Assembly: GCA_965221125.1 (NCBI GenBank) | Contig: CBDCRW010000004.1 | Coordinates: 672,001-736,000 of the forward strand | Direction of reading: 5' to 3' | Length of the DNA stretch: 64,000 nt | DNA from: Alphaproteobacteria bacterium | GTDB lineage: Bacteria > Pseudomonadota > Alphaproteobacteria > UBA828 | Program-made: the position numbers and the translations under genes | Shown: piece by piece, positions 4,581 to 50,231 of the stretch | Position numbering within the stretch: position 1 is the stretch's first letter | Layout of the letters: the number at the start of each line of letters is the position of its first letter | Notes under the pieces: model-generated | Seen by the model: the letters and a program-made list of their open reading frames with translations, nothing else | Databases searched by the model: none | Told to the model about the DNA's origin: nothing

Positions 4581-4944
4581 CCCCGACATGCGCGAGCCGG
4601 CGCACGCGATGGTGTGCTGGACCGAGGGCGGACGGGTCGAGGGCGGAACCGGGATGGCGATCCGCCTTGCCAGGCACTACCGGATCCCGATTGTCAACCT
4701 TGCCGGAATGGACATGCGCGAGGCGATGGATCGCCTGGACCGAATCGGGCAGTCGCGCGACAGCCCTGACCTGGAGCAGGAGCTTGCGACTTCGGGCGGA
4801 TCCGAGGGCGAAACCCCGTCCGTGACACCGGCGCGGTCCCAGCGCGACAAGAGGGACGAGGACTGGTGGTTGGCCGAAGGCGTGCAGCAGGCGCGGACCG
4901 AAGAGCCACGAAAGATGACCCGGCAGCACTCACTGCATCTCTGA
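4581..4944 (+). pseudogene. 3' half of a split DUF4326-SLOG (DprA/YspA-like) gene
   Basis: PDMREPAHAMVCWTEGGRVEGGTGMAIRLARHYRIPIVNL continues in frame from ...ARNVAILVGP at 49508 (- strand) through the duplicated CCCCG. Confidence 0.88.
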
Positions 4945-5050
4945 CGCGAGCGGGGGTGCCCGTGAGGGAACGGCCCTGGACGCTTCTCTTCTTCGACAAA
5001 TGTCCCGTTAGGTGCTGCGGCTCCCCTTCCCCGCAAATCGTCACCCATAG

Positions 5051-6663
5051 CCCGAATTATTCATGGCAGGTCTGGTTTTGGGGTGGCGGACGTAGCGTAA
5101 GTCGTTGCCATCGGGTAGGAATTCGTTGCCGAGGCGTCTTCCTCTCCGAACAACGAAAATGCCACGCCCGCCATGACCGACGATAGTCTTCTTCCCTTCG
5201 ATCTGCCAAGCGTCCAACGCAAGAAGGTGAGCGCCGCCTTCGACGGCGGCCTGATCTCGTCTGACGGCGGCCTCGTCCTGCTTCGTGAGGCGGAACGCAG
5301 CTTGCGCCTGGCCGAGACCCTGGCCGGCTGCATCCGCGACCGGCGCAAGCAGGCGCAGGTGATCCACTCGCTCTCGGCCATGCTGCGCTTCCGCATGTTC
5401 GCCATTGCGTGTGGCTACGAAGATGCCGACGACTGCGACGCGCTGCGCGCGGACCCTCTGTTCAAGCTGGCCTCAGGCAAGGCGCCGGAGAGCGGCCGCG
5501 CACTCTGCTCCCAGCCGACCATGAGCCGCCTGGAGAACGCGCCGTCTCGTATCGAGGTGGCGCGCATGACGGCGGCGCTGGTCGATCTCTTCTGCCGCAG
5601 CTTCCAAGCCCCTCCCGCCGCCATAACCCTTGACATCGACGACACCTGCGATGCGGTGCACGGCCACCAGCAGCTCTCGCTCTTCAACGCTCATTACGAC
5701 ACGCGCTGCTTCCTGCCCGTCCACGTCTACCATGTGGAAAGCGGCAAGCCGGTGGCGGTCCTCCTGCGCCCGGGCAAGACGCCGTCGGGCCCTGAGGTCC
5801 GCACCCTCATCAAGCATCTGGTCCGCCGCATCCGCCGCCACTGGCCGCACACCCGGATCGTCTTCCGCGGAGACAGCCACTACGGCCGCCCGGAAGCCAT
5901 GGCCTGGTGCGAGGAGAACGGGGTCGACTACATCTTCGGCCTCGCGGGCAACCGCGCGCTGCACGCGCTCGCATACGAGATGGCCGACGATCTCAAGGTG
6001 CGCCGCGCCAAGGCCGGCGCAGACAGGATGCGCAGCTTCACCGCCTTCGACTACGCCGCCCGCTCCTGGAGCTGCGAACGCCGGGTCGTCGCCCGGCTCG
6101 AGGCGAGCACCCGCGGCTTCGATGCCCGCTATGTCGTCACCTCACTCAAGGGCGAGCCCCGCCATCTCTACGAAGACATCTACTGCGCCCGCGGCCAGGC
6201 CGAGAACCTGATCAAGATGCACAAGGGCCAGCTCGCCTCGGACCGCACCTCCTGCCAGAGCCCGCTCGCCAATCAGCTCAGGCTGGTCCTCCACACCGCA
6301 GCCTACTGGCTCATGCTCGCGCTGCGCGACGCCATTCCCCGCGCCGCGCCGCTCGCCCGTGCAGAGTTTGCAACCCTCAGGCTGCGCCTCCTCAAGATCG
6401 GTGCCCGCGTCATCGAGAAGGCCACCCGCATCCGCATCCACTTCGCCTCGGCCTGCCCCGACGCCGCCCTCTTCCGCCTGCTCGCAGGCCGCCTCGCCGC
6501 AGCAGGCCCATGAGCGACGGGGCGGCGTGCCCCAATCACCCAGGCTCCATAAACCATCAACCCGATAACGACCATCCTCAGTTCCCGACGCCAAACCGCG
6601 TCAGGCCCCGACGCGCCCAATCAACCGAGCATCAAGTGCAAGGCAGTCCATGAATAGGTCGGG
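5051..6663 (+). mobile_element. IS1380-family insertion sequence
   Basis: TIRs CCCGAATTATTCATGG / CCATGAATAGGTCGGG (14/16); 4-bp ATAG duplication at 5047-5050 and 6664-6667. Confidence 0.93.
5173..6513 (+). CDS. IS1380-family transposase
   Basis: FDGGLISSDGG, GYEDADDCD, TLDIDDT, FRGDSHY, YCARGQAENLIK motifs. Confidence 0.95.
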   Translation: MTDDSLLPFDLPSVQRKKVSAAFDGGLISSDGGLVLLREAERSLRLAETLAGCIRDRRKQAQVIHSLSAMLRFRMFAIACGYEDADDCDALRADPLFKLASGKAPESGRALCSQPTMSRLENAPSRIEVARMTAALVDLFCRSFQAPPAAITLDIDDTCDAVHGHQQLSLFNAHYDTRCFLPVHVYHVESGKPVAVLLRPGKTPSGPEVRTLIKHLVRRIRRHWPHTRIVFRGDSHYGRPEAMAWCEENGVDYIFGLAGNRALHALAYEMADDLKVRRAKAGADRMRSFTAFDYAARSWSCERRVVARLEASTRGFDARYVVTSLKGEPRHLYEDIYCARGQAENLIKMHKGQLASDRTSCQSPLANQLRLVLHTAAYWLMLALRDAIPRAAPLARAEFATLRLRLLKIGARVIEKATRIRIHFASACPDAALFRLLAGRLAAAGP

Positions 6664-6731
6664 ATAGAGACTTAAGGATCCCTGACGAGGTTTATGTCCC
6701 GTTGAAGCTGACTTCCCGACAAATTGCGTCC

Positions 6732-15470: not shown

Positions 15471-15605
15471 CCGCATTTGCGCCGACCACCGCAGATCGCG
15501 CCCGCCCATCGCCCCGAGCCGGCGAAAGGGGCGGGCGCTCTGGCTCGGGCGAGGTCGGACGACCGAGAGACGTCCGCGCCGACTCCCCGCATTCAGGAGC
15601 CGCCC

Positions 15606-16631
15606 ATGCCCGACCCCGACACCATCTCCGCCGACTACACGCTGCGCCCCAGCGAGCTCGCCGCCACCCTCAAGATCCTTGTCGAAGCCAGGCAGCCCGT
15701 CATGGTCTGGGGTGGGCCCGGAATCGGCAAGAGCGAGGTCGCGCAGCAGGTCGCCGCCGAAGGCGGCCGCACCTACTACGACGTGCGCGCCTTGCTGCTC
15801 GATCCCGTCGACCTGCGCGGCATCCCCTGGCGCGACGACGACAACCGCACGCGCTGGGCGCCCCCGGACTTTCTGCCACCCACCGACAGCACCGACCTCT
15901 ACCTCGTCAACCTGGAAGAGCTTCCCTCCGGCGTGCCCATGGTGCAGGCGGCGCTCTTCCAGCTCGTCCGCGACCGCAAGTGCGGTGAGTACGAACTGCC
16001 CGAAGGCGCCTCGCTCATGGCCTGCGGCAACCGCGAGGGCGACCGCGGCGTCACCCACCGCATGCCGACCCCGCTGGCATCCCGCTTCGTCCACCTCGAG
16101 ATCAAGGTCGATCCGTCGGACTGGTTGGAATGGGGAGCCGCGCACGGAATCGCGGCCGAGACACTCTTCTTCATCCAGCTCAGGCCGGAGCTTCTGAATG
16201 TGTTCGATCCACAGTCGCGCGAGGCGGCATTCGCGTGTCCCCGCACGTGGGAGTTCGTCTCAAACGTGGTGAACCAGCGCGGCAACCTCGACCCGGCCGC
16301 GGAGCGCGCGCTGTTCCGGGGCGCCGTCGGCGAAGCGGCGGCAGTCGAGTTCTCGGCCTTCCTCAAGGTCTGGCGGGAATTGCCTCACCCGAGGGCCGTC
16401 ATCGACGATCCGGAGAATGCCGACGTGCCCGAGAACGCCAGCGCGCTGATCGCGCTCTGCGGCTCGCTCTACCGCATGGCCGACGACGTCAACCTCGGCT
16501 CGATCGTCTCTTACGCCATGAGGCTCAGGCGCGAGGTGGGCGAGTTCCTCGTGGGCTCCTGCGTGCGCCGCGAGCCCGCGCTCCAGCACACCGACGCCTT
16601 CATCCGCTGGGCCGCCGCACGGACCCAGTGA
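15606..16631 (+). CDS. MoxR-type/AAA_5 ATPase, paralogue 1 (341 aa)
   Basis: AGGAG RBS; GGPGIGKS, NLEEL, ACGNR, PLASRFVH, PRTWE. Confidence 0.88.
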   Translation: MPDPDTISADYTLRPSELAATLKILVEARQPVMVWGGPGIGKSEVAQQVAAEGGRTYYDVRALLLDPVDLRGIPWRDDDNRTRWAPPDFLPPTDSTDLYLVNLEELPSGVPMVQAALFQLVRDRKCGEYELPEGASLMACGNREGDRGVTHRMPTPLASRFVHLEIKVDPSDWLEWGAAHGIAAETLFFIQLRPELLNVFDPQSREAAFACPRTWEFVSNVVNQRGNLDPAAERALFRGAVGEAAAVEFSAFLKVWRELPHPRAVIDDPENADVPENASALIALCGSLYRMADDVNLGSIVSYAMRLRREVGEFLVGSCVRREPALQHTDAFIRWAAARTQ

Positions 16632-20592: not shown

Positions 20593-20731
20593 CGGCTCAG
20601 TTTCTGAAACCGGAGTGTGGCGTATGCATGCTGCCGGGGCAGCTGGATCTCGGCTGGGATGGATCGTGTCCCGAGGAGTGGTGTAAGAGCGTCGCGCTTT
20701 ACGCGGCATCCGGCGGGTAGGGCCGGGTTAT

Positions 20732-21928
20732 TCAGGCTGCCACAGCGGACAGCTTGATCGTGGGATTGTCGCTCAGGGGAGCGATCGATTCCAGCGTCAT
20801 GTACCTCCTTCCGACGGTCCATTCGTCGTTCTGCTCGAGCAGCACGGCGCCGACGAGGCGGGTGATGGCGTCCTCGTTGGGGAAGATGCCGACGACGTTG
20901 GTGCGTCGCTTGATCTCGCCGTTGACGCGTTCGAGCGGGTTGGTCGAGTGAAGCTTGACCCGGTGCTCCTTGGGGAAGCTCATGTAGGCGAGGACGTCGT
21001 GCTGGGCCTCGTCCATGAGGGCCGCCAGCTTGGAGGCCTTGGGCCTGAGCTGGTCGGCGATCAGGCGCCACTGGGCGGCAGCGGCCTCGGCATCGTCCTG
21101 GGCGAAGGCGGTGGCGACGAAGGCGGAGACGACGCGCCGGCCCTGCTTGCCGGCATGGGCCAGCAGGTTGCGCATGAAGTGGACGCGGCATCTCTGCCAG
21201 GTGGCGCCGAGGATCCGGGTGGTGGCGGCCTTCAGGCCCTTGTGGTCGTCGGAGATCACCAGCTGCACGCCGCGCAGGCCGCGCCTGGTCAGCGAGCGCA
21301 GGAACTCGGTCCAGAAGGTCTCGGCCTCGGAGGCGCCGATCGCCATGCCGAGGATCTCGCGCCGGCCCTGGTCGTTGACCGCGACGGCCACGGTGACCGC
21401 GACCGGGACGATGCGCCCGGCCTCGCGCACCTTCACGTAAGTCGCATCCAGCCAGAGATAGGGCCAGTCGCCTTCGAGCGGGCGGTCGAGGAAGCTGCGG
21501 ATCTTGTCGTCTATCTCCCCGCAAAGGCGCGAGACCTGGCTCTTCGATATCCCGCTCATGCCCATGGCCTGAACCAGTTCGTCGACCGAGCGGGTCGATA
21601 CCCCCTGGATGTAGGCCTCCTGGATCACCGCCGTGAGCGCCTTCTCCGCCGTCCGTCGGGGCTCCAGGAAGCCGGGGAAGTAGCTCCCCTTCCTGAGCTT
21701 CGGAATCTTCAGGTCGACCGTGCCGGCCCGGGTCTCCCAAGGCCGATCGCGGTAGCCGTTGCGCTGGTTGATCCGCTCCGGCGTCCGCGCGCCATGCTCG
21801 GCGCCGGTCAGGCCCTCGACTTCCAGCTCCATAAGGCGCTGCGCAGAGAAGGCGATCATCTCACGCAGCAGATCGGCGTCAGAGCTCTTCTCCAACAGCG
21901 TCCGCAGGGTAAGCTTGTCATCGGTCAT
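20732..21928 (-). CDS. IS256-family transposase
   Basis: [49 protein letters not shown]. Confidence 0.96.
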
Positions 21929-21999
21929 CGTGGTTCTCCTTAGGCTCGGGTCGATTCGGATTCACCCAAACCCTAAACCGGAACCGCGATGGCCACCCC

Positions 22000-22068
22000 G
22001 CTGTGGATAACCGGCTTGGCGCCACCAGACTCGAGGGCGGTCGCGGCGCCAAGCCGGTTACCCACAGC
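22000..22068. other. Hairpin in IS256 leader
   Basis: GCTGTGGATAACCGGCTTGGCGCC ... GGCGCCAAGCCGGTTACCCACAGC, 23/24 paired. Confidence 0.75.
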
Positions 22069-22864
22069 TACCGGGGGTAGCGGGAGCTCCTACACCACGT
22101 CTGGGGACACAACCCTGGGATGCGCGAGGGCGCGGTCGATCTATGTGGAACCCGAACGCTGATGACATCTGGCGGTTCCGTTAGCTGCAGCGGACTTCGC
22201 TGCGAGCCGGACCAACGGCCCCGCCGGCGGCAATCGCTTTCGGCCTCGTGAGCGCGCTCCCGGCATCTGACGGTGGTGTAATCAGACCATTTGATGGGCC
22301 TCAAGCGGCCCATCCGGGCGAGCCAGCACGGAGGATCGGGTTGCCAGCCGAAACGCTGAAGCGGAACGGGCACGGCCTACCACGGATGGTCACAAAGGAC
22401 CGCGACAGTGCGTGAGAACTGCGGAACGTGAGGGGTATCCACTACCGGGTGTGGGCCGCGATGCGCAAGTCGGTAGACTGACTGCAGATGTGGCGGTAGC
22501 CGTCGAGCGTCGCGTTGATCCGCGACGAGGCTAACGGCGCCGATTGCAAGCTTCCTTACATCAGATATTTAGTCTGATCCCGATCATGGTCAGGAGATGG
22601 CCTGAGAGATCACGAGATAGATTATTCGGGGTGTGCGCCGCCATCTCCCGGTCGGGAGGGGGCTGGAGGAGTCTCCTGGTTCCATCATCGAAGTACCTAT
22701 AGGGTACCGACCAACTCTCGGGAAATCGGGCGGGCGATAATCGAGAAATTGGGAAATCAAGAGAGTCAATGCGGGGATTTCTGAACAAGCTAGGAACATG
22801 TTTTACTTTTCAATGACCCACATTGCATTGCGGGCTTGGGAAAGAGCAGTGAGGAAGAGTCAGA

Positions 22865-32413: not shown

Positions 32414-32463
<50 letters not shown>

Positions 32464-32676: not shown

Positions 32677-33849
32677 ATGCCGGCGCAGATCAAGATCACC
32701 AAGCGGGTCATCGACAGCATCGAGTGCGACGGAACCGACCGCTTCTACTGGGACCGGGAGCTGCCGGGGTTCGGTATGCGGGTCAGGGCATCGGGCCGCA
32801 AGTATTTTGTCACCCAGTTCCGCGCCAGCGGCCGGCTTCGCCGCATGACCCTGGGCCCGGTCACGGCCATGACCCCGGAGATTGCGCGCAAACGCGCGAT
32901 GGCCCTGCTCTCCGAGGCCAAGTCGGGAGGCGATCCTGCTATGCAGCGGGACGCAGACCGGAAGGCGGCAACCGTCAAGCTGCTCGGACAACGGTTTCTC
33001 AACGAGTACGTCCCCGACCACTGCAAGGAGAGCACGGCCTACGAATACCGGCGTTCGGTCGAGTTGTTCATCGATCCTAGGATCGGCAGCCGCAAGGTGA
33101 CCGAGGTCCAGCGGAAGGACATCGCCGAACTGCATCATGCGATGCGGAAGACGCCCTACCAGGCCAACCGTACCCTCGGTGTGCTCTCGAAGATGTTCAA
33201 CATGGCGGAGGTGTGGGGCCTGCGGCCTGACGGCTCGAACCCCTGCCTGCACGTCAAGCGCTTCAAGGAAGAGAAGCGCGAGCGGTTCCTGAGCACCGAG
33301 GAGTTCCAGCGCCTCGGTGCGGTTCTCGACGAAATCCTCAAGGACGGCTCCGAGACCCGTTCGGCCGTCGTGGCCATCCGCCTGCTGATGCTGACCGGCT
33401 GCCGACTTTCGGAGATCCAGAAGCTGCGATGGGAGCATGTCGACCTGGGCGCCGGGGAGTTGAACCTGCCCGACACGAAAACGGGCGGCAGGGCGGTGCC
33501 GCTGGCGCCTTCGGCGGTGCGGCTTTTGGAGTCTCTCCCCCGCGACGACGACAACCCGTGGGTGATCGCCGGCCGGAAGGCTGATTCCCATCTCACCGAT
33601 CTCCAGCATCCGTGGCGGCGCATCCGAGAGCGCGCTGAACTGCCCAACGTGCGAATTCATGACCTCAGACATTCGTTCGCGTCCAGGGCGCTGGCGCTCG
33701 GCGAAGGGCTGCCTATGATCGGGAAGCTCCTTGGTCACACGCAGGTGCAGACAACCGCCAGATATGCTCACTTGGCCCGGGATACCGTCAAAGCCTCCGC
33801 CGCGCGCATCGGAGATAGCATCGACAACGATCTCGAAGCTACGCCATAA
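32677..33849 (+). CDS. Tyrosine integrase with N-terminal arm-binding domain
   Basis: WDRELPGFGMRV; TGCRLSEI, HDLRHSFAS, LLGH, TARYAH. Confidence 0.95.
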   Translation: MPAQIKITKRVIDSIECDGTDRFYWDRELPGFGMRVRASGRKYFVTQFRASGRLRRMTLGPVTAMTPEIARKRAMALLSEAKSGGDPAMQRDADRKAATVKLLGQRFLNEYVPDHCKESTAYEYRRSVELFIDPRIGSRKVTEVQRKDIAELHHAMRKTPYQANRTLGVLSKMFNMAEVWGLRPDGSNPCLHVKRFKEEKRERFLSTEEFQRLGAVLDEILKDGSETRSAVVAIRLLMLTGCRLSEIQKLRWEHVDLGAGELNLPDTKTGGRAVPLAPSAVRLLESLPRDDDNPWVIAGRKADSHLTDLQHPWRRIRERAELPNVRIHDLRHSFASRALALGEGLPMIGKLLGHTQVQTTARYAHLARDTVKASAARIGDSIDNDLEATP

Positions 33850-33891
33850 GGTGCTTGTTGGATTTCACCGACGATCTCAGACCGTTCCCGA

Positions 33892-38659: not shown

Positions 38660-38806
38660 CGGACCCGCGGGACGGCGCCCGCCCCGCGTCCCGCGCGCCG
38701 GCGACATGCCCCGAAGCGCAACGAGAGGAGGGCGGCTTCCGCCGGGCGAAGGCCGGGCGCCCGGAGGGTGCCCGCGCCGCCATCCCGCCATTCCGGAGGC
38801 CTGCCC

Positions 38807-39832
38807 ATGACCCAACCCGCCACCATCTCCGCGGACTACACGCTCCGCCCGAGCGAGGTCGCCGCGACCCTCGCCCTGCTCGTCGAAGCCCGCCAGCCGG
38901 CGATGCTATGGGGCGCCCCGGGCACGGCGAAGTCGATGATCGCCCAGCAGGTCGCCGACGACGGCAACCGCCGCTATGTCGACGTCCGGGCGCTGCTTCT
39001 GGACCCCGTCGACCTGCGCGGCATCCCCTGGCGCGACAGCGACGGCCGCACCCGCTGGGCCCCGCCGGTATTCCTGCCCCCCACGAACGACACCGGCCTC
39101 TGGCTCATCAACCTCGAAGAGCTGCCGTCCTGCGTGCCGATGGTGCAGGCGGCGTTGTATCAGCTCGCGCTCGAACGCAAGGTCGGCGAGTACGCGCTCC
39201 CGGAGGGCGCATCGCTGATTGCCTGCGGCAACCGCGAGGGCGACCGCGGCGTGGTCCACCGCATGCCGACCCCGCTGGCGTCGCGCTTCGTCCACCTGGA
39301 GATCCGGGTCGACGCCGATGACTGGCTCGCCTGGGGCGCGGCCAACGGCATCGCGGCCGAGGTGCTGTTCTTCATCCAGCTCGAGCCGACGCTTCTCCAC
39401 CAGTTCGACCCGCAGTCGAAGGAGAAGGCGTTTCCGTGCCCGAGGACGTGGCATTTCACGAGCAACATCGTGCATCGCCGCAACGGCCTCGACCCGTCGG
39501 TCGAGCGCGCGCTGCTGCGCGGCACCATCGGCGAGGCCGCCGCGGTCGAGTTCGCGGCGTTCCTCAAGGTCTGGCGCGAGCTGCCCCATCCCCGCGCCGT
39601 CATCGGCGATCCCGGGAACGCCGACATCCCCGAGAACGCGAGCGCGCTGATGGCGCTCTGCGGCTCGCTCTACCGCATGGCAAGCGACGTCAACTTCGAC
39701 GCCATCGTGACCTATGCGGCGCGGCTCAGGCGCGAGGTGGGCGAGTTCCTCGTCGGCTCCTGCGTGCGCCGGGAGCCGGGGTTGCAGCGCTCGCCCGACT
39801 TCATCCGCTGGGCCGCCGCCAGGACCCAATGA
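38807..39832 (+). CDS. MoxR-type/AAA_5 ATPase, paralogue 2 (341 aa)
   Basis: GAPGTAKS, NLEEL, ACGNR, PLASRFVH; collinear with 15606-16631. Confidence 0.88.
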   Translation: MTQPATISADYTLRPSEVAATLALLVEARQPAMLWGAPGTAKSMIAQQVADDGNRRYVDVRALLLDPVDLRGIPWRDSDGRTRWAPPVFLPPTNDTGLWLINLEELPSCVPMVQAALYQLALERKVGEYALPEGASLIACGNREGDRGVVHRMPTPLASRFVHLEIRVDADDWLAWGAANGIAAEVLFFIQLEPTLLHQFDPQSKEKAFPCPRTWHFTSNIVHRRNGLDPSVERALLRGTIGEAAAVEFAAFLKVWRELPHPRAVIGDPGNADIPENASALMALCGSLYRMASDVNFDAIVTYAARLRREVGEFLVGSCVRREPGLQRSPDFIRWAAARTQ

Positions 39833-39978: not shown

Positions 39979-39996
39979 CCCCAGAGGAGAGAGCCC

Positions 39997-40896
39997 ATGA
40001 ACCTCACCGACGACGCCATGCAGGTGTCCTTGCGCATCACCGCCTGGTCCGGCCGGCTCTACGACCGCCAGGCGAGCAACCACGTCGCCGTCCAGCACGA
40101 GGCCTCGACCAGCGCCGGGCGCTACAACAAGCGCCTGCTGCCCAAGGCCGCCCTGGCCGCGCTCACCGCGACGGTCAGCGCATGCAGGACCGCGCATTAC
40201 GAACAGACCCTGCCGTGGGACGACCAGGGCTCGCGGCTGCTGACCGTCGCCAACTACGAGCACTACACGGAGCTCATGGACGGGTTCCGCGAGCGCATGG
40301 TGCGCGACCGCGCCCGTTTCATCGAGGATTACGACAACAATGTCGACCAGGCCCGGCTCGACCTCGGCAAGCTCTTCCGCATCGAGGACTATCCCTCCAA
40401 GGAGGCGCTCCAGGGCAAGTTCTCGATCCGCTACCGCATCACTCCGGTGCAGGACGCCGAGCAGTTCATGGCGAAACTCGCGACCGACGATGTGGACCGG
40501 ATCAGGCGCGACATCGAGTGCCAGATCGAGGAGCGCCTGCACGATGCGGTGGGCGATCTCTACCGCCGCTTCGGCGAAGCGGTCGAGCGGGTCTCGGAGC
40601 GGCTGCGGGAGGACGAGAACGGCAAGCCGCTGGTGTTCCGGGATTCGATGATCTCCAACATCCGCGACCTCGTCGATGTGGTGCCGCGGCTCAACATCTT
40701 CGGCGACGACGAGCTCGCGCGCCTCTGCGAGCAGGTGAAGGAGAAGATCGCGAGCGTCGAGCCCGACGCGCTCCGGCCGTCGAAGTCGTTCGATCCCGTG
40801 GCGCGTGCGCGGGTGAAGCGCGACGCCGACGAGCTGATGGAGAAGTTCGCGGGCTATTTCGCGGCGCCCGCCGAGCCGGTGCGGGAGGCCGCGTGA
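39997..40896 (+). CDS. DUF3150-like helical protein
   Basis: AGGAG RBS; TLPWDDQGSRLL, DYPS, FRDSMISN, LNIFGD; lies between MoxR and VWA genes. Confidence 0.65.
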   Translation: MNLTDDAMQVSLRITAWSGRLYDRQASNHVAVQHEASTSAGRYNKRLLPKAALAALTATVSACRTAHYEQTLPWDDQGSRLLTVANYEHYTELMDGFRERMVRDRARFIEDYDNNVDQARLDLGKLFRIEDYPSKEALQGKFSIRYRITPVQDAEQFMAKLATDDVDRIRRDIECQIEERLHDAVGDLYRRFGEAVERVSERLREDENGKPLVFRDSMISNIRDLVDVVPRLNIFGDDELARLCEQVKEKIASVEPDALRPSKSFDPVARARVKRDADELMEKFAGYFAAPAEPVREAA

Positions 40897-42284
40897 TGAC
40901 CACCCGCGTGATCGAGGAATCCGCGCAGCGCGTGAGCGACGGCGTGACCGAGCTTCTGCGCAAGCAGCCCTTCTTCGGGAGCCTCGCGCTCAGGCTCCCG
41001 CTCAGGGCCGACCCGAGCCGGGAGACGCTGGCGAGCGACGGGCACGAGATCCGCTACTCGCCCCGATGGGTCGCGGCCACCGACGCGCACCTCATCGAGA
41101 CCGCGATAGCGCGCGTGGTGATGGCGTGCGCGCTGAAACACCACACCCGCCGGGGCGAGCGCGACCCCGAGCGCTGGCAGATGGCCTCGCAGCTCGTCAC
41201 CCATGCGCTCATTCGCGACGCGGGCTTCACCCTGCCGCCCGACGCCGAGGCGCTGGAGGGGGTGAGCGTGGAGGAGGCATACGACCGCCTGCCCGAGCCC
41301 CGCGACGACGACCCCGGCAATGACGGCGATTCGCCTCCGCCCGGCGGCCAGCCCTCCGGCGCAGGCGTTGGCGACGGGGCTTCGCCCGACACGGCGGACA
41401 GCGACGGCGCGCCGGATGCCGGTGACGGACAGGGCCAGGACGATGCCGGCGATGACGACCAGGGCGGGAACGGACCCGGCGGGGACGGGCAGGACCGCGA
41501 TGACGGTTCCGATGCGCCGGCAAGCCACGATCCTTCTGGCACCGGGGAGATCATGGATGCGGGCGCCCGGGGCGACGGAGACGGCGATGCCGGTGACGGC
41601 GAGACGCCGGTGGACGTCACCGCCGAAGAGCAGGCGTGGGACGAGGCCATGCACCAGGCCATGAACCTCGCCAGGGCCGAGGGCAAGCTGCCGGGCGGGG
41701 TCGAGGAGACGGTGAAGAACGCCCACGCCAGCACGCTCGACTGGCGGAGCCTCCTGCGCCGCTACATGACCGATGCCGCGCGCCGCGACTACAGCTGGAG
41801 CCTCCCCAACCGGCGCTTCATCGACGGCGGTCTCTATCTTCCCTCCATCCGCTCCGAGGGCATGGAGGCGATCGCGGTCATCATCGACACGTCGGGCTCG
41901 CTGCCGGCCCGGACCCTCGACGAATTCTGGGCCGAACTCCGCGAGATCGCGGCCGAGATCCAGCCGGAGAGCGTCCACGTGCTCCAGGTCGACGCCGCGC
42001 TGCAGGACGCGGCGGAGTACGCGCCGGACGACCTGCCCGAGGAGATCGTCGTCAAGGGCCGGGGCGGCACCGACTTCCGCCCAGGCTTCGAGTGGCTCGA
42101 CGAGCAGGGGATACAGCCCGCCGTCTGCCTCTACTTCACCGACATGGAGTGCTCCGACTACCCCGAGGCCGAGCCCGGCTTCGATGTTATCTGGGCGAAC
42201 TGGGGTCCGCCTCCGTCCGGCTGGAACCGCGAGCCCTGGGGCGAGCGCATCGACATCGCCACCGACCGGGCAGCCCGATCATGA
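40896..42284 (+). CDS. DUF2201-type metallopeptidase-like + acidic linker + VWA-like protein (462 aa)
   Basis: PFFGSLA, LDWRSLLR, IIDTSGS (MIDAS), GRGGTDF, YFTD; TGATG coupling with the upstream gene. Confidence 0.85.
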   Translation: MTTRVIEESAQRVSDGVTELLRKQPFFGSLALRLPLRADPSRETLASDGHEIRYSPRWVAATDAHLIETAIARVVMACALKHHTRRGERDPERWQMASQLVTHALIRDAGFTLPPDAEALEGVSVEEAYDRLPEPRDDDPGNDGDSPPPGGQPSGAGVGDGASPDTADSDGAPDAGDGQGQDDAGDDDQGGNGPGGDGQDRDDGSDAPASHDPSGTGEIMDAGARGDGDGDAGDGETPVDVTAEEQAWDEAMHQAMNLARAEGKLPGGVEETVKNAHASTLDWRSLLRRYMTDAARRDYSWSLPNRRFIDGGLYLPSIRSEGMEAIAVIIDTSGSLPARTLDEFWAELREIAAEIQPESVHVLQVDAALQDAAEYAPDDLPEEIVVKGRGGTDFRPGFEWLDEQGIQPAVCLYFTDMECSDYPEAEPGFDVIWANWGPPPSGWNREPWGERIDIATDRAARS

Positions 42285-42541
42285 CGCGCGCGATCCACGG
42301 CGCCCCCGCCGAGGCGCTCAGGCGCGCGCTGGAAGCGCTGTCGCAACTCTCGTTCTGGATCGCCTGGACGGCCGACCCCGATCTGTACCCCGACGCCCCG
42401 GTCAGCACCCGCTGCCTGCGCGATGCCGCAGGCGGTCTTCGCAAGGCCGCCGGTCTCCTCGACGACGCCGCGGAACAGGTCGAGGCACAATACGAACCCG
42501 GCTTCGACATACGCCATCGTGCGCAAGACGGTCGGCCATGA
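42281..42541 (+). CDS. Hypothetical protein (86 aa)
   Basis: ATGA overlap with the VWA gene stop. Confidence 0.5.
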   Translation: MTRAIHGAPAEALRRALEALSQLSFWIAWTADPDLYPDAPVSTRCLRDAAGGLRKAAGLLDDAAEQVEAQYEPGFDIRHRAQDGRP

Positions 42542-42655
42542 TACGGCGCTTCCGGAGCCGGGCGCCCGGGCGGTTCATGCAACGCGGCGACCAACGCCAC
42601 ATCCATCCGGAGCACGTCGCGGCACGTCGCGGCGTGGACATCGGGCCGACCTCAG

Positions 42656-42668
42656 GCTACATTGTAGC
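42656..42668. promoter_or_regulatory. Palindromic operator of dinJ/relB-yafQ
   Basis: GCTACA-T-TGTAGC just upstream of the antitoxin RBS. Confidence 0.6.
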
Positions 42669-42688
42669 TCAATCAGGAGGATCGACAC

Positions 42689-42946
42689 ATGAGCACCGTC
42701 GTTCGGGCCCGCATCGACGAAAAGACCAAGCAGGAAGCCGCCGCCGTGCTCGACGCGATCGGCCTCACCGTGTCCGACGCCTTCCGCCTGATGATGGTGC
42801 GGATCGCGGCCGAGAAACGCCTGCCGTTCGAGCCCCTGGTGCCGAACGCGGAGACCGTAGCGGCCATGGAGGCCGCGCGGCGGGGCGACCTGGTCACGGT
42901 CGGCGATGTCGACGGCCTGACGGCCGACCTTCATGCGGACGATTAG
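42689..42946 (+). CDS. dinJ: RelB/DinJ antitoxin
   Basis: VVRARIDEKTKQEAAAVL..GLTVSDAFRL....LPFEPLVPNAET. Confidence 0.88.
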   Translation: MSTVVRARIDEKTKQEAAAVLDAIGLTVSDAFRLMMVRIAAEKRLPFEPLVPNAETVAAMEAARRGDLVTVGDVDGLTADLHADD

Positions 42947-43197
42947 ACGGACCGCGGCCTTCAAGCGGGATTACAGGCGCGAGAAGAGGGGCCGCTTCGC
43001 CAGGACCGTCGATGCCGAACTGGCGGAGGCCCGGCCGATCCCGCCGCGCCATCGCAACCACGCGCTTGGCGGGCAATGGAAGGGGGCTTACAAGGAAATG
43101 TCGACGGCGAGGCCATCCGCCGACCGGCCTCTTTCGATGCCTCCATGGCCGTTGCCGTAGAAGCGGGGATGGCTCCATGCCAGGCAAGGGGGTGCCC

Positions 43198-43884
43198 GTG
43201 CAATTCGACATAAATGTGCTCCCCGAGCCGCAGAGACGGCTGTGGGAGGTGCTTGACGGTACGCCGTCGGGCTTCGTTCTTTACGGAGGCACGGCGCTTG
43301 CATTGAGGCTGGGGCATCGTCAGTCCGTCGATTTCGATTTCTTTTCTCGCGACGCCTTCCAGCCCGATGCGCTCCGAAGGAACATTCCCTACTTGAGCGG
43401 AAGCCTGACGATCCGAAGCGAGGAAAACACCTTGTCATGCGTTCTGAACCTGGATGGCGAGGTGATGGTGTCGTTTTTCGGAGGCCTCCGCATGTCCAGC
43501 GTCAACGACCCGGACAAAGCGGACGGATCTGGCATTCTTGTGGCGTCTTTGCCGGATATCGCCGCGACAAAGGCGGCTGCGGTTCAATCGCGCGCCAGCG
43601 CCAAGGACTATATCGACCTGGACGCCCTGCTGCGATCCGGTCTCTCGCTTGAGGAGGCGCTGGGGGCCGCCAATGCCGTATTCGGCCCTGAGTTCAATCC
43701 TCTGGTGACGCTCAAGGCGCTTGCTCATTACGCAGACGGCAATCTGCACCAGGTGCCGAATGAGGTTCGTGAAAACCTGACGAAAGCCGTTGCTGCGGTC
43801 GATGTTCAGAACCTTCCGGTATTCGAGCCGCGCGCACGCCTTTGTCCCGACGAAACAGGAACGGAGCACGACAATGGCTTCTGA
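43198..43884 (+). CDS. AbiEii/AbiGii-family nucleotidyltransferase toxin
   Basis: FVLYGGTALALRLGHRQSVDFDFF, KAAAVQSRASAKDYIDL. Confidence 0.88.
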   Translation: MQFDINVLPEPQRRLWEVLDGTPSGFVLYGGTALALRLGHRQSVDFDFFSRDAFQPDALRRNIPYLSGSLTIRSEENTLSCVLNLDGEVMVSFFGGLRMSSVNDPDKADGSGILVASLPDIAATKAAAVQSRASAKDYIDLDALLRSGLSLEEALGAANAVFGPEFNPLVTLKALAHYADGNLHQVPNEVRENLTKAVAAVDVQNLPVFEPRARLCPDETGTEHDNGF

Positions 43885-44338
43885 GATTTCGGATGACGCC
43901 CCCGGAACAAGGAAGGCGGCCCCGGACTCCGATCCGGGGAGGCAGACGCTGCTTGAGGTTGCGCGGCGGGTGGTATGGTTCCAACCGCCTCACGAGACGC
44001 TGCGCGACGAGGTCCAGTTCCTGAACCATGTGATGATCTACGGCTCCTCGGAGGATACGGCGACGGTCCGCCGCGCCTATGGCGACGAGGCACTGCGCGA
44101 TGCCTTGCGCAATGCCTGGCCCGGGATCTTCGATCCACGCTCCTGGTCCTACTGGCACACGGTTCTCGGGATGCTGCCCGTGCCCCCGATGCGCGTTCGG
44201 CAGTTCCCCGCGGAGCCGGGGGAAGCGGTTCCCGAGGTGAGCCCGGCCATTCAGGGGCATGGCGGCCCTCCAAGAGGCCGGGGGACCGGGGCGCCGGACC
44301 GAAACATGCCTGCTCCGGCTCCAGGCCCGTCCGACTGA
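43874..44338 (+). CDS. Putative partner/antitoxin of the AbiEii-like gene
   Basis: Overlaps the toxin stop; ARRVVWF..FLNHVMIYG..PGIFDPRSWSYWH. Confidence 0.6.
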   Translation: MASEISDDAPGTRKAAPDSDPGRQTLLEVARRVVWFQPPHETLRDEVQFLNHVMIYGSSEDTATVRRAYGDEALRDALRNAWPGIFDPRSWSYWHTVLGMLPVPPMRVRQFPAEPGEAVPEVSPAIQGHGGPPRGRGTGAPDRNMPAPAPGPSD

Positions 44339-45032
44339 TCCCCCTTCTTCGCGGAGTACCCGCTCCCGGCACCGTCTTCCGATGAGCGGGGTTTCGTGTT
44401 TGGGCCGTGGCGCCGAACAGGAATTGGCGCCTTGCTGCTGCGCGCTCCCGCGGCAGGGAGGCGCTCCGCCAACCTTTCCTTGCAAGTCCCAATGGAAGAA
44501 CCACCGGGACTGTCACGTCCGGCCCGATCTGGTCCTGATCTACCGCAAGCCCGACGCCGGACATCTCGATCTCGTGCGTCTCGGCTCGCACAGCCAACTC
44601 GGCCTCTGACCGGCCGCGCCTTCCGGACCCCCGCGATCCCCGCCCTCCAATAGTCGGCCGACGCTCCGGTCCACGACCCGAGGCACTTTCCCCAGGGCCG
44701 GCCGCCGCTCATCCGCCGTCGCCCGCGCGCCGTCTTCCACCGTTTCCGATACCGCCGCACCGCACCGTCCGCCGTTTCCGGCGGCGGCGACGGTCGGGCT
44801 GCGCCTCCCGGAGCCGGAGAGCAGCCGGTCGGGGGCGGGCGTGGGCAGGCGGCGAGAGCCGGCTGCGCCGCGCCGGTGCAACCCTCTGTTGTTTTCCGGT
44901 CTAGCCGGATAGAAGCACGGGTTTTTTTCTCACTTTGATTGGTTGGTGGATTTCCCGGGATGGTGGCCGAGTGCGGGAAGGACGCTGCCTGCGGCATTTT
45001 TTTGATCCTCAGCAGAATCCTCATTGCTGTTG

Positions 45033-45166
45033 AAGCTGTGGAGCGGTGGGCGCGAGATCGGCGAGTGTGGTCAGGCGGTGGGCAAGCGCCAGCTTGTCCA
45101 CGGGCTGTCCACACGGTCCGCAGGACGCCGATCGGTCCGCAGGACGCGTCCACGGCTCCACAGCTT
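45033..45166. other. Long imperfect hairpin in transposon leader (copy B)
   Basis: 12-bp perfect closing stem, nested GATCGGCG/CGCCGATC and GTGGGCAAGC/GCTTGTCCAC stems, CGGTCCGCAGGACGC x2. Confidence 0.7.
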
Positions 45167-45255
45167 GGCGGCGGCGGGGAGCGTCCGTAATCTTGGCCTC
45201 TCACTGAACGACAAAGAGAGGCCCGGGGGACGGAACTCCCGCCGGGCCAGGGCCG

Positions 45256-45891
45256 GTGCAGCTTCGCTACGAAACGGGGCTCACCAGCGAGGAATACGTT
45301 AAGACCGAGGCGTGGCGCGACGCAAGGCTTGAGCGCTGCCCGAATCACCCGCACGGCGGATGTTCTGTGGCAAGCCACGGCACCTACGAGCGGAAGACCC
45401 CGCCCGGCGCAAGGGTTCCTCGCTGGTATTGCCGTGAGAGCCATACGACCATCGGCCTGCTGGCCGACTGTCTGGCGGCGCGGCTGCCGGGCACGCTCGA
45501 TGCGCTGGAAGCGGTTGTTGTCGTGGCGGAGGAGGCCGGCAGCCTGGAGGAGGCAGCGGACGAGGTGCGCTGCCCCGAGGACGAGGACGCCATCGAGCTT
45601 CCCGGCGCCGTGCGTTGGATCCGCCGCAGGCTGAAGCTTGTGCACGACGCGCTTGTGCGCGTCATCGGCCTGATCCCCGACCTGCTCGCGGGCTGCGCGC
45701 CCACCATGAGCGCGGTGCGCGAGCGTCTGAAGAGCGACAGCGCGTTGATGGAACTGCGCGGCCTGGTCGCCGGGCAGCTCCGGACGCTACCCGCGCCTCT
45801 GGGCTTCCAACCCCACGGCATCGACGTGGGGAATCGCAAACCGCAGTTCCAACAACGGGCGGGGCCGGACCCGCCGCCGGAGAGTTCGTAG
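45256..45891 (+). CDS. Cys/His-rich putative Zn-binding transposon protein (DUF6431-like)
   Basis: Identical to 3576-4211. Confidence 0.6.
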   Translation: MQLRYETGLTSEEYVKTEAWRDARLERCPNHPHGGCSVASHGTYERKTPPGARVPRWYCRESHTTIGLLADCLAARLPGTLDALEAVVVVAEEAGSLEEAADEVRCPEDEDAIELPGAVRWIRRRLKLVHDALVRVIGLIPDLLAGCAPTMSAVRERLKSDSALMELRGLVAGQLRTLPAPLGFQPHGIDVGNRKPQFQQRAGPDPPPESS

Positions 45892-45936
45892 CGTGACGAT
45901 CCCGGGGCCAGGGAGTCCCTGAACGAGGATCGCACC

Positions 45937-47265
45937 ATGAACAGCTCAGACGACGACCTTCGCCAACAGATCGCGCTCTTCCGATACGACGTCATCGCCG
46001 ATCTGGTGCATCTGCCCGTGGGTGCACCGGGTGCCGGCGCGATGATGCGCGCCAAAGCCGAGAAGACCTACACGATCCCCGGAACCACCAGGACCCGGGT
46101 CGCCGCCGAGACCATGCGGCGCTGGATCAAGGACTACCGCTACGGCGGCTTCGACGCGCTCTACCCCAAGCCCCGCACCGACCGGGGGAAGCCCCGGCGG
46201 CTGCCGCCCGAGGTCGCCGAGCGCCTCATCGCGCTGAAGACCGAGAACGACGCATTGTCGGTTCGCGCCATCATCCAGAAGGTCAAGGAGGAGGGTATCG
46301 ACCACCCGCTCGCCTCGTCCACCGTGCACCGCCTCTTCAGCCGCGAGGGCCTGTTCGACAAGAAGCCGCCCGACGGGGCGGATCGCCGCCGCTTCGCCTT
46401 CCGGCATGCCGGCGAGATGTGGATGAGCGACGTCATGCACGGACCCAAGGTCCGGCACGGCCGAACCCGGCGCAAGACCTACCTGATCGCCTTCATCGAC
46501 GACGCCACCCGCGTCATCCCGTTCGCCGCCTTCGCCATGGCGGAGAACACTGCGGCGTTCCTGCCGGTGTTCAAGGACGCGCTGATCCGGCGCGGCCTCC
46601 CGGCCCGCTTGTACGTCGACAACGGAAGCGCCTACCGCTCCCGTCATCTCTCCCTGGTCTGCGCCAGGCTCGGCGTTGCGTTGATTCACGCAAGGGCGTT
46701 CCAGCCAGCGGGAAAGGGTAAGATCGAGCGCTTCTTCCGCACCCTCCGGGCCGGCTGGCTCCGCCACCTCGGCGATGACGTCGACAGCCTGGAGGCGCTC
46801 AACCGCAGCCTCTGGGCCTGGATCGAGGGGGAGTATCACAACAGCCCGCATCGTGGCCTCGACGAGGGGCGCACCCCGCTTGAGCAGTGGGCGCTGGCCT
46901 CGGCCGGCGTGCGCTATCCCGACGCCACCATGGACCTCGACGATCTGTTCCTCTTCGAGGCCAGGCGCCGTGTCTACAAGGACCGCACCGTTAGTCTGAA
47001 CGGCCGCGTCTACGAGGTCGACGCCCTCCTGGTGGGTCAGAACGTCATCCTGCGCTACGACCCGGCCGCGCCGCCCTCGCGCCCTCTCGACGTGGTCCAT
47101 GACGGCAAGCCGGCCGGCAAGGCCAGCCCTCTCGACGCCTACGCCAATACCGCCGTCAGGCGCACCTACCCGGCCAGGGAGATCGAGGCCGAAGATCCGG
47201 CGCCCGAGCCTCCGCCCTCGCCGCTGGCCATGCGCAACCTCAAGGACAAGAAGGAGGACGAGTGA
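45937..47265 (+). CDS. DDE transposase (Mu/TnsB-like)
   Basis: Identical to 2202-3530. Confidence 0.92.
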   Translation: MNSSDDDLRQQIALFRYDVIADLVHLPVGAPGAGAMMRAKAEKTYTIPGTTRTRVAAETMRRWIKDYRYGGFDALYPKPRTDRGKPRRLPPEVAERLIALKTENDALSVRAIIQKVKEEGIDHPLASSTVHRLFSREGLFDKKPPDGADRRRFAFRHAGEMWMSDVMHGPKVRHGRTRRKTYLIAFIDDATRVIPFAAFAMAENTAAFLPVFKDALIRRGLPARLYVDNGSAYRSRHLSLVCARLGVALIHARAFQPAGKGKIERFFRTLRAGWLRHLGDDVDSLEALNRSLWAWIEGEYHNSPHRGLDEGRTPLEQWALASAGVRYPDATMDLDDLFLFEARRRVYKDRTVSLNGRVYEVDALLVGQNVILRYDPAAPPSRPLDVVHDGKPAGKASPLDAYANTAVRRTYPAREIEAEDPAPEPPPSPLAMRNLKDKKEDE

Positions 47266-48065
47266 TGTACCTGCGCCACTTCGCCTTCACCCGCCTGCCC
47301 TTCGAGACCCCGGCAGAGACCGACGAGCTGTTCGAGTCCAACGCGCGCCGCGAGGCCGAGGCCAGGCTCGGCCACCTCATCGACCTGCGCGGCATCGGCC
47401 TGCTCACCGGCGAGGTGGGCTCCGGCAAGACCACCGTGTGCCGGCATCTGACCGCGCAGCTTCATCCAGGCCTCTACCGGGTCCACTACGTCTCGCTGAC
47501 CACGGGCAACGTGCTCGACATGTACAAGGCGATCGCGTGGGAGATCGGCCTGCCCATCGAGCGCTCCCGCGCCTCGGCCTATCAGGCCATCCGAAACGAG
47601 ATCTCCCGCCTCGTCACCGAGGCCAAGCAGCTGCCGGTCCTCGTCATCGACGAGGCCCATCATCTGCGCAACGACGTCCTTGAGGACCTGCGCCTGCTCA
47701 CCAACTTCGCCATGGATGCAGAGCAGCGCCTGTGCCTCGTCCTCGTCGGTCTGACCGAGCTCAGGCGCCGCCTGGCCATGGCCATGCACGAATCCCTCAG
47801 CCAGCGCCTCGTCGTCCGCCACCACCTGAGCGGTCTCGACCGCGACGAGGTCGACGCTTACATCAAGCACCGCCTCAGGCTCGCGGGATGCGAACTGCCG
47901 CTGTTCGAAGAGCCCGCCGTCGAGGCCCTGTTCCAGGGCGCGCGCGGCCTGCCGCGCCAGATCAACCGCATCGCCCACTACGCGCTCTCCGCCGCCGCTC
48001 TCGACGAGGCGAGGACCGTCAGTGCCGACCACCTGCAGCACGCGCTCGAGGAACTGCGGCCATGA
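47262..48065 (+). CDS. ExeA/TnsC-like AAA+ ATPase
   Basis: Identical to 1402-2205. Confidence 0.88.
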   Translation: MMYLRHFAFTRLPFETPAETDELFESNARREAEARLGHLIDLRGIGLLTGEVGSGKTTVCRHLTAQLHPGLYRVHYVSLTTGNVLDMYKAIAWEIGLPIERSRASAYQAIRNEISRLVTEAKQLPVLVIDEAHHLRNDVLEDLRLLTNFAMDAEQRLCLVLVGLTELRRRLAMAMHESLSQRLVVRHHLSGLDRDEVDAYIKHRLRLAGCELPLFEEPAVEALFQGARGLPRQINRIAHYALSAAALDEARTVSADHLQHALEELRP

Positions 48066-49102
48066 CCGGCTTCCCGACCCGCGCCCCGATCGAGCTGGAG
48101 GAGCGGCCGCGCGAGCAGCAATGGCTGGTGGACACGCTATGGGGCGAGCAGGCCGTCGGCATCGTCGGCGGCGAGCCGAAGTGCGGCAAGTCCATCCTGG
48201 CGCTGGACCTCGCGGTCGCAGTCGCCGCCGGCGTCCCATGCCTGCGGCACTTCGCCCCGGCCCGGCCTGGCCCGGTCCTGCTGTTCGCCGCAGAAGACGC
48301 CGGCCACCTCGTGCGCAAGCGCCTGCAGGGGATCGCCCGCGCCGCAGGCGCCCGCTTCGAGACCCTCGACATCGCCGTCATCGACGTGCCCACACTGCGC
48401 CTCGACCATCTCGACGACCGCCGCCGCCTGCAGCAGACCGTGGAGCGCATCGCACCGCGCCTCGTGGTCCTCGACCCCCTGGTCCGCCTGCACGGCGTGG
48501 ACGAGAACACGGTTGCGGACGTCGCCCCGATCCTCGGCTTCCTGCGCGACCTGCAACGCCGCTTCGAGACCGCCGTCCTCCTCGTCCACCACGCCCGCAA
48601 GAGCGGGGCCACGAGGCCGGGGCAGGCCCTGCGGGGCAGCAGTGAGCTGCACGCCTGGGGGGACTCGAACCTCTACCTGCGCCGCCGGGACCGGCAGACC
48701 CTCATGACCGTCGAGCATCGCGCCGCACGCGGTCTCGACGACATCGAGATCGAGCTCAAGGAAGACGGAGAGGAGCCCTCCTTCCGGCTGCGCCAGCCGC
48801 CCACGGCCGGCGGCGGGGCGCCTCAGCCCGAAACACCCGAATGCCGCGTTCTCAAGGCGCTCGCCGACGCCGGGGCGCCGCTCTCGCAACGCCAGATCCG
48901 GGAACGCGCCGCGACCCGGCACAAGACCGTCGGCGTAATCTTGCAAAAGCTCGTCCAGGAGGGTCGCGTCGCGCGCAACGCCGAGGGCGGCTACAGCGTC
49001 GTCGCAGGCGCAGCGGACAAGCGGGCGGCGGCCGCCGCCGCCAACGGCAGCAGTCGGCCGCAGGCCCCGCGGTTCCCGGAGCCCGGTTCCGCCAACGCCT
49101 AG
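48062..49102 (+). CDS. AAA_25 / RepA-like ATPase-helicase with wHTH
   Basis: Identical to 365-1405. Confidence 0.8.
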   Translation: MTGFPTRAPIELEERPREQQWLVDTLWGEQAVGIVGGEPKCGKSILALDLAVAVAAGVPCLRHFAPARPGPVLLFAAEDAGHLVRKRLQGIARAAGARFETLDIAVIDVPTLRLDHLDDRRRLQQTVERIAPRLVVLDPLVRLHGVDENTVADVAPILGFLRDLQRRFETAVLLVHHARKSGATRPGQALRGSSELHAWGDSNLYLRRRDRQTLMTVEHRAARGLDDIEIELKEDGEEPSFRLRQPPTAGGGAPQPETPECRVLKALADAGAPLSQRQIRERAATRHKTVGVILQKLVQEGRVARNAEGGYSVVAGAADKRAAAAAANGSSRPQAPRFPEPGSANA

Positions 49103-49507
49103 GGGTTCGAGCCGGAACCGCCGTCGGGAACCACCCTTCCCCAACGGTCCGGAAGGCGCTGCGCCTCCACCGGGATACTACGTCAGGTGAGCGGCCAGTC
49201 CGTGGCCGGAAGCTTGCTTCAGGCCATGGCAGCACTTCGTCGTGTGGACGGTGGCGAGTCACCCGAAGGGCCGAAGCGAAGCGCAGGAGCGGCGCAGCCG
49301 CTTGACGCGCCGACGGCCGCGCGACACCTCGTCAGCTCTCCTCAAGCACCAGTCCAAACCTCAATCAGACAGCGACCCCGGACCGCCCGCAGAGACCATG
49401 AGCTCCTACGCTTCGATCCGGAAAAGACCGAGCAATCTGGGAAATCAGGGCAGCGATCACGTCAAATAATCTGGGAGATTCGGCGTCAAATAACGTGCGA
49501 AACAACA

Positions 49508-50231
49508 CGGGGCCGACCAGGATAGCCACGTTGCGCGCATGCAGGTCCCGGACCTTGGCCGGACACCTCTGCCACGCCGGGTGGTGGGGCTCTGCCGCGG
49601 CCCGGAGCTTCCGCAACTCCTGCGCCTTCAACGCGCGACCCTCGGTCTCGCTCCAGCCGTTGTAGCCGCGCCAGGGTAGGTAAACGGTCCGCCGCTCGGC
49701 GGGCGCGGCGCGGGCGAAGGCATCGTCGGCGCCCTTCGCGCCGCCGGTGCGCAGGAACCAGCCGCGCCCGGCCAGGTTGGTGGCCATATCCCTCATCACG
49801 TTGAGCACGGGTTCGGGCGTCTTGCGCGCGCCGACGCCGGCATAGATCGGCGTCGGCCCGATCGGCGCCTCAATCTTCTCCCCCGGCTGCCAGGTCCTGT
49901 CGGCAGCCAGCCGCGCATGAGCCCACGACGCGGCCTTCGCGAGAATGTCCCCGTGACAAGGCAGCGGATGGCAATGACAGGCCAGGGTCTTTCCGTTCAG
50001 CGCCGCGAGCTCCGCCAGGGGAATCCCGCCGCTCTTCACCTTGCCCCAGAGCCAGTTGCGGTAGCGCTCGATGACCTCCTCGCGATTGCCGTGTCTGCCG
50101 ATCACGAAGGGATTGCCCCAGCGCGTGCGGCGATCGATCCGCACCACATCGCCATGCTCGTTCGTGCCCTCCAGAGCCGCGCGCAGATCGGGCCGGTCCT
50201 TCATGTTGACGACGGTGGCCATGCCGCTCAT
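49508..50231 (-). pseudogene. 5' half of split DUF4326-SLOG gene
   Basis: VRIDRRTRWGNPF..LNGKTLACHCHPLPCHGDIL (DUF4326), then YAGVGARKTP..LRTGGAKGADDAF (SLOG/DprA-like); cut at ARNVAILVGP by the transposon. Confidence 0.88.

Follow-up and report, generated by a model that had tools for sequence, protein, structure and literature searches.

Evidence for a recent 40-kb inversion between identical copies of a Mu/Tn7-type transposon in an alphaproteobacterial chromosome

Recombination between inverted insertion sequence (IS), rrn or prophage copies gives chromosomal inversions. Long-read sub-alignment has been used to detect inversions of this kind, as described in the part of the source cited here (PMC6044046). 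Intramolecular replicative transposition in trans by IS26 or Tn4401 likewise yields inverted copies that each bear a single target duplication, inverted between the two, according to the section of He et al. (2015; PMC4471558) that treats these elements. Here we analyze a 64,000-nucleotide stretch of an alphaproteobacterial genome, G000 (contig C4, positions 672001-736000; below, the window), in which a 40,306-bp segment lies between two copies, A and B, of a 4,621-bp transposon that are identical and inversely oriented.

The arrangement resembles the IS26 and Tn4401 inversions, as presented in that section, in having inverted copies without a direct duplication of their own, shared inverted flanks and a target gene in two inverted halves; as for Tn4401, the target duplication here is 5 bp. 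Unlike those elements, the transposon belongs neither to IS6 nor to Tn3, but encodes a Mu/Tn7-type DDE transposase together with an AAA+ ATPase. The locus also differs in being chromosomal, among 20 mostly simple insertions, and a replicative mode would here have to be deduced. With inversions by inverted-repeat recombination it shares the long identical inverted repeats that bracket the segment, the reciprocal exchange and the potential for reversal; unlike the usual cases, its state before the inversion can be rebuilt to the base, using the target duplications and the empty sites that two relatives carry.

With Mu, Tn7 and Tn5053-Tn402 the transposon has in common a transposase with rve and Mu-transpos_C domains, an adjoining and overlapping AAA+ gene, TGT...ACA termini, asymmetric subterminal repeats and a 5-bp duplication. 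It differs from them in that no TnsA, resolvase or Pfam TniQ was found, a conserved 211-aa C-C-H-C protein being present instead, and in that its closest relatives add a gene for a helicase-like AAA_25/winged helix-turn-helix (wHTH) protein. The region further resembles tandem tRNA-targeting integrative elements, as three modules of an integrase and an attachment (att) site have the same geometry, with att copying the 3' part of a tRNA; in contrast to such tandems, one module is inverted, att1 and att2 are not direct repeats, and the window holds no intact tRNA gene.

Exchanged flanks, a split gene and the ancestral junctions

As assembled, the window carries what appears to be a real and recent inversion of 40,306 bp, with breakpoints inside the two identical inverted transposon copies. 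An earlier note on this DNA had proposed this inversion, and the proposal is well supported by the reciprocal swap of the flanks, by a split gene, by an empty site in the relative G009 and by the co-orientation of the integrase-att modules that is restored when the segment is turned back. Coordinates of all features are given in Table 1.

A repeat search of the window returned one long inverted repeat, whose arms (1-4580 and 44887-49466) show 100% complementarity and are separated by 40,306 nt. When the contig was read beyond the window start, the full transposon was found to measure 4,621 bp, and copies A and B are base-for-base reverse complements. Along the + strand the order is GAGGG, A, CCCCG, segment, CCCTC, B, CGGGG. 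Read in the orientation of the element, the left and right flanks are CGGGG and CCCTC for A, and CCCTC and CGGGG for B, which amounts to a reciprocal exchange. The earlier note had described the 5-mer CCCCG/CGGGG as split between opposite ends of the element and had predicted GAGGG 42-46 bases before base 1; reading the flanks bears out the split, and GAGGG is present exactly at the predicted place in the contig upstream of the window.

G000 holds 20 copies of the transposon, all 100% identical, on six of its seven contigs; 17 are uninterrupted and three carry a 1,453-bp IS. Perfect 5-bp target-site duplications (TSDs) flank 15 of the 20 copies and 4-bp duplications (CCTT, CTGC, GGGC) another three, and only A and B have none. 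Comparison of flanks between different copies, over all 20, gave solely the two reciprocal cross-matches of A and B. For 5-mers drawn from G000, P is 0.0023 for one cross-match and about 5e-6 for a reciprocal pair; over the 190 copy pairs, about 0.001 reciprocal flank matches are expected by chance. It could be argued that 5-mers are short, and that the flank matches and the open joined frame described below are coincidental, without any rearrangement. We give practically no credence to this explanation, given so low an expectation, and it is already refuted by the uninterrupted versions of both junctions in relatives.

These relatives, G008 and G009, belong to the same genus as G000. At the CGGGG junction, the interrupted gene encodes a DUF4326/DprA-like protein. 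Joining its two parts in silico (50231..49508 on the - strand to 4586-4944) gives one 360-aa frame, with 724 nt before the joint and a codon-position G+C of the coding type, and the protein reads ..RNVAILVGP / D / MREPAHAMVCW.. across the joint. G008 has an uninterrupted 360-aa orthologue (L002 1501-2583), to which the 5' piece aligns over residues 1-240 with 90% identity and the 3' piece over residues 243-360 with 80%, leaving neither gap nor overlap. The DNA on either side of the split gene is collinear with G008 in the uninverted sense. The intact 1083-nt frame for 360 aa, which the earlier note had obtained from the same two parts, is thus confirmed by the join and by the intact orthologue.

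The CCCTC site is intergenic and precedes the start region of a ParB-like gene, which encodes about 800 aa and lies in the upstream flank, by at most 10 bp. In G009 (L094) the end of the segment and the upstream flank are directly adjacent, in the predicted relative orientation. The junction sequence is ...GCAAC CTTC CATGGAGAC..., with a single CCTTC versus CCCTC once on each side in G000. G008 is without the last 2.6 kb of the segment (42281-44886) and supports the CCCTC junction just by wider collinearity. When metagenome contigs were scanned for exact matches to a 27-mer from the upstream flank and to a 29-mer from the segment end, neither had any (0 matches each). We also considered a second split gene at CCCTC and found no support for it: the sole coding-like frame across this junction begins 6 nt past it, and the upstream flank itself contains in-frame ATGs.

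The integrases Int1 and Int2 each lie 160-215 nt from one arm of a 49-nt repeat, att1 and att2 respectively. In the assembled order, att1 and att2 form inverted repeats separated by 23,335 nt, and they become direct only once the segment is reversed. Reversing 4581-44886 gives all three integrase-att modules one orientation, as expected of integrated elements in tandem, the third module lying about 30 kb beyond the second. The alignment of both att sites and both integrases by this reversal, as stated in the earlier note, is accordingly found again and extends to the third module.

Table 1. Positions of the features discussed, in window coordinates unless a contig is named
Feature	Position	Strand	Remarks
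Transposon copy A	G000:C4:671960-676580 (41 nt before base 1 to window 4580)	-	cut by window start; left (L) end at 4580
Copy A genes	AAA_25/wHTH 365-1405; AAA+ ATPase 1402-2205; DDE transposase 2202-3530; orf211 3576-4211	-	
Transposon copy B	44887-49507	+	complete, 4,621 bp; ends TGTTGTTT...AAACAACA
Copy B genes	orf211 45256-45891; DDE transposase 45937-47265; AAA+ ATPase 47262-48065; AAA_25/wHTH 48062-49102	+	
CCCCG	4581-4585	.	one half of CGGGG/CCCCG target duplication; adjoins L end of copy A
CCCTC	44882-44886	.	one half of second target duplication; adjoins L end of copy B; partner GAGGG at C4:671955-671959
CGGGG	49508-49512	.	other half of CGGGG target duplication; adjoins right (R) end of copy B
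Inverted segment	4581-44886	.	40,306 bp
Split DUF4326/DprA-like gene, 5' part	49508-50231	-	724 nt = 241 codons + 1 nt; DUF4326 and start of DprA-like domain
Split DUF4326/DprA-like gene, 3' part	4586-4944	+	completes codon 242, then codons 243-360 and stop
Int1, tyrosine integrase	32677-33846	+	Phage_integrase and Arm-DNA-bind_3; inside inverted segment
Int2, tyrosine integrase	54496-55638	-	outside segment; 66% identical to Int1
Int3	85119-86240 (outside window)	-	third module; geometry as second
att1	32415-32463	-	49-nt fragment like 3' part of tRNA-Met(CAT) gene; perfect inverted copy of att2
att2	55799-55847	+	49-nt tRNA-Met-like 3' fragment
Third att-like tRNA fragment	about 86441-86486 (outside window)	+	beside Int3
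ParB-related family members	61268-63535 (-); 15477-16628 (+); 38768-39829 (+); flank upstream of copy A		
IS256-family IS inside transposon copies	G000:C7:276233-277685; C6:194952-196404; C5:758404-759856		
IS256-family IS, free copy	20662-22114		

Possible origins of the inverted order

Both gene halves still have intact frames and all copies are identical, which indicates recent events, and the 20 copies at 100% identity, several of them clustered, point to a very recent burst of transposition. Three copies lie within 73 kb here (the third at window coordinates 68485-73105), and pairs 30 and 42 kb apart are found on C3 and C5. Besides A and B, three neighbouring pairs 19-42 kb apart keep intact TSDs (C3 275619/310470, C5 72345/119015 and C4 716887/740485), so that two simple insertions close to each other are not unusual in G000.

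The order of events, the enzyme system and the reversibility of the reaction are matters that we infer. With moderate confidence, we favor a history in which two simple insertions came first and homologous recombination between the copies came afterwards. During the burst that yielded 20 copies, two insertions would have occurred independently of each other. One would have interrupted codon 241/242 of the DUF4326/DprA-like gene, itself part of an integrated mobilisable element, and duplicated CGGGG; the second, 40 kb off, would have landed within 10 bp upstream of the ParB-like gene start, duplicating CCCTC. RecA-type homologous recombination between the two 4.6-kb copies would then have flipped the intervening DNA. 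As a result, the flanks would have been swapped reciprocally, the gene halves would have come to lie 45 kb apart on opposite strands, and one of three co-oriented integrase-att modules would have been turned, making att1 and att2 inverted repeats.

This history is favored because 18 of the 20 copies are simple insertions, among them the three other pairs at 19-42 kb, and because the two copies offer 4.6 kb of perfect identity. At typical rates, such a pair should recombine while 92 kb of element DNA stays free of substitutions. Several points weigh against it. The inverted pair formed by B and the copy at C4:740485, only 19 kb apart, has not recombined. Identical copies leave no trace of a crossover, and the product is that of intramolecular replicative transposition, in which a single resident copy with its 5-bp duplication attacks in trans a site 40 kb off on the same molecule; as the strand-transfer intermediate is replicated, this would make the second, inverted copy, invert the DNA between and split each duplication, exactly as in the product set out for IS26 and Tn4401 in the section cited above (PMC4471558). 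Such an origin takes one event instead of three. The transposase, with rve and Mu-transpos_C domains and a MuB/TniB-like AAA+ ATPase as partner, is of the Mu type, and Pfam searches of the 11 transposon open reading frames (ORFs) on both strands found no TnsA-like nuclease, resolvase or recombinase family, the opposite-strand ORFs having no Pfam match. Tn7 relatives that lack TnsA transpose replicatively and form cointegrates, in the part of the source that deals with them (PMC11406308), and the replicative route stays a serious one for this reason. The transposition chemistry of the present family is here assumed by analogy, though, and the simple insertions, including the close pairs, argue that intramolecular rearrangement is not its usual outcome; moreover, none of the 20 copies in G000 is a solo copy without TSD, the signature of a deletion. 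We therefore consider a one-step replicative origin possible, if doubtful. The earlier note had named replicative transposition or homologous recombination as the cause without choosing between them, and rightly so, since the products are identical and the copies contain no differences that would mark a crossover.

Both histories take the assembled order to be correct, and the orientation is that given by the assembly. The true order could be the uninverted one, reported wrongly after a false path through the identical repeats, or the population could be mixed, with one or a minority orientation reported. The four junctions between a flank and an element end do not differ between the orientations, which leaves the decision to molecules longer than 4.6 kb, and none of the contigs listed from public runs spans a copy. 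The assembly (4.58 Mb in 7 contigs, 68-70% G+C) has 92% completeness and 5.8% contamination, and variant contigs near 44560-44847 occur in X15, a run that resembles the source. On the other hand, the same assembly threads 18 other transposon copies with matching duplications (15 perfect and three of 4 bp) and gives a perfect 8-bp TSD for 13 of the 14 copies of the 1,453-bp IS, so that arbitrary joining of repeats is unlikely. For an artefact, two joins would also have to be wrong in a coordinated way, and each flank occurs just once in the assembly, with no alternative contig. An assembly artefact or mixed population is, in our estimate, quite improbable, and we retain the inversion as assembled, most plausibly by recombination between the copies.

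Public data were available as 20 listed runs in the form of Logan contigs, which are broken at repeats; four (X15, X1, X12 and X19) were aligned to 40000-56000. A contig of X15 covering 49482-50754 has 0 differences from the window, as expected in either orientation. Record 14 of X12 (from 49512) and record 3 of X1 (at 44886) stop matching at or within 4 nt of the element boundaries and continue with unaligned sequence; they could reflect relatives with an empty site, but we draw nothing from them. In X15, the run that represents the region best, the contig at 44560-44847 shows G>A at 44560, T>C at 44842 and an additional GGC after 44847, whereas the neighbouring unique pieces match perfectly; it may represent a second strain in that run.

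Continued flipping of the segment, raised in the earlier note as a possibility, is plausible. A bolder proposal, which we consider unlikely, is that the 40-kb segment still flips as an accidental two-state switch, built by a widespread, undescribed three-gene Mu/Tn7-like family without TnsA or resolvase. If so, att1 and att2 would be direct in one state and the relaxase-bearing integrative element of about 34 kb excisable, and in the other state this element would be locked and the upstream region of the ParB-like gene exchanged.

The rearrangement is a well-supported instance of an ordinary and well-documented kind, with a textbook signature. For G000, it resolves, to the single base, how a region rich in mobile elements came to be arranged, explains a gene that seems truncated twice, and accounts for the inverted att sites and probable immobilisation of a relaxase-bearing integrative element. 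More generally, it provides a clean worked example of how exchanged target duplications, together with empty sites in relatives, expose an inversion; on its own, this signature does not tell recombination from replicative transposition. Of more interest, as a by-product, is the transposon, with its 20 identical copies, a conserved protein of putative zinc-binding type and relatives in many phyla, and both this family and the locked integrative element merit further attention.

Integrative elements in and around the segment

The inverted segment contains an IS1380-type IS, a TrwC relaxase, a fragment of a type IV coupling protein (T4CP), an IS256-family IS, a Fic gene, the Int1/att1 module and a RelB/YafQ pair. 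The element of about 34 kb between att1 and att2 includes the TrwC relaxase, the coupling-protein fragment and the split gene. In the present orientation, this element should no longer be excisable by its integrase, and recombination of att1 with att2 by the integrase would now be expected to invert rather than excise. An inversion mediated by the integrase itself was considered and rejected, as the breakpoints coincide with the transposon ends and not with the att sites.

Compared with the tRNA-Met(CAT) of G000 itself (C4:571416-571492), which we take to be of the initiator type from its end features, the att fragments agree in 43 of the 45 positions that run from the anticodon loop to CCA. 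The two differences form a compensatory pair in the T stem, and the fragments were therefore probably brought in by the integrative elements. No intact tRNA gene lies within C4:600001-800000, and neither Rfam nor ARAGORN returned an RNA gene within the window.

ParB-related genes of about 750-820 aa, along with shorter paralogues, recur four times in and around the window, with 76-84% nucleotide identity over 230-740 nt; they probably mark repeated, related integrative elements. The RelB-type antitoxin (42689-42943) and the YafQ-type toxin sequence (about 44493-44613) are about 1.48 kb apart here (43013-44493). The same pair is about 86 bp apart in at least nine genomes of the genus, one of these instances being a second locus of G000 on C7, which suggests an insertion into the toxin-antitoxin pair.

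The transposon and its relatives

Four genes fill the transposon (45256-49102 in copy B). The DDE transposase (442 aa) has an HTH_32 domain and matches rve (PF00665, E = 1.2e-10) and Mu-transpos_C (PF09299, E = 1.7e-7) above cut-off, and phrog_310 among the PHROGs (E = 3e-49); its best NCBIfam match, IS481, is under the cut-off (201.9 versus 224 bits). The AAA+ ATPase (267 aa), whose gene overlaps that of the transposase, matches AAA_22 with 95 bits and phrog_296, a 'DNA transposition protein', with E = 1.4e-29, while the Pfam model for TniB gives 20.8 bits, under its 22.4-bit cut-off. The product of the fourth gene (346 aa) combines a helicase-like AAA_25 domain with a MarR-type winged helix. 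No TniQ match was obtained with Pfam in the transposon ORFs. The ends (TGTTGTTT...AAACAACA) have TGT...ACA termini and asymmetric subterminal repeats. The transposon thus behaves like the Mu/Tn7/Tn5053 group, but several features typical of each named family are absent or uncertain.

The orf211 product has no match in Pfam, NCBIfam or PHROGs. Residues C28, C36, H41 and C59 are invariant in all 28 aligned sequences, and the C-terminal half is helical. An AF2 model reached a pLDDT of 82.8, and structure searches with it gave no convincing solved relative (best Foldseek E = 0.26; best VIA Z = 4.2, for the helical part only). This protein, conserved across the family, may be a target selector or DNA-binding subunit of the transposon.

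Among 79 related loci in public genomes, the first three genes are kept down to about 35-50% identity, and the fourth, AAA_25/wHTH, occurs in the closest relatives only. A scripted TSD count over 28 copies of multi-copy relatives gave 5 bp in 13, 4 bp in six and none in nine; when the flanks of these nine were read by eye, at least three were boundary artefacts and about four truly lacked a TSD. A plasmid collection contained no relative of the transposon, two records having short matches with 1-3% cover.

Relatives of the transposase (34-98% identity, loci L014-L092) are often present in several identical copies per genome. The genomes are labelled as Alpha- and Gammaproteobacteria, Spirochaetia, Bryobacterales, Acidobacteria, Gemmatimonadetes and others, and the cultured hosts include Ectothiorhodospira and Desulfosarcina. 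In G008, an 87%-identical relative of the transposon (G008:C5:42520-46670, L010/L011) is found some 160 bp downstream from the uninterrupted orthologue of the split gene, so that one small region of a shared mobile element has received related elements twice. Of the words sampled from a 9-kb stretch, half of it transposon, about half occur in runs labelled sponge or marine metagenome, and pieces of X1, the one such run aligned, match both the transposon and the segment-end flank.

The 1,453-bp IS, of the IS256 family (Transposase_mut), is present in 14 copies in G000. Three of these lie within transposon copies, each in the non-coding ends and at most about 180 bp from a terminus, versus 0.047 expected by size (P ~ 2e-5), and this IS may prefer the transposon ends.

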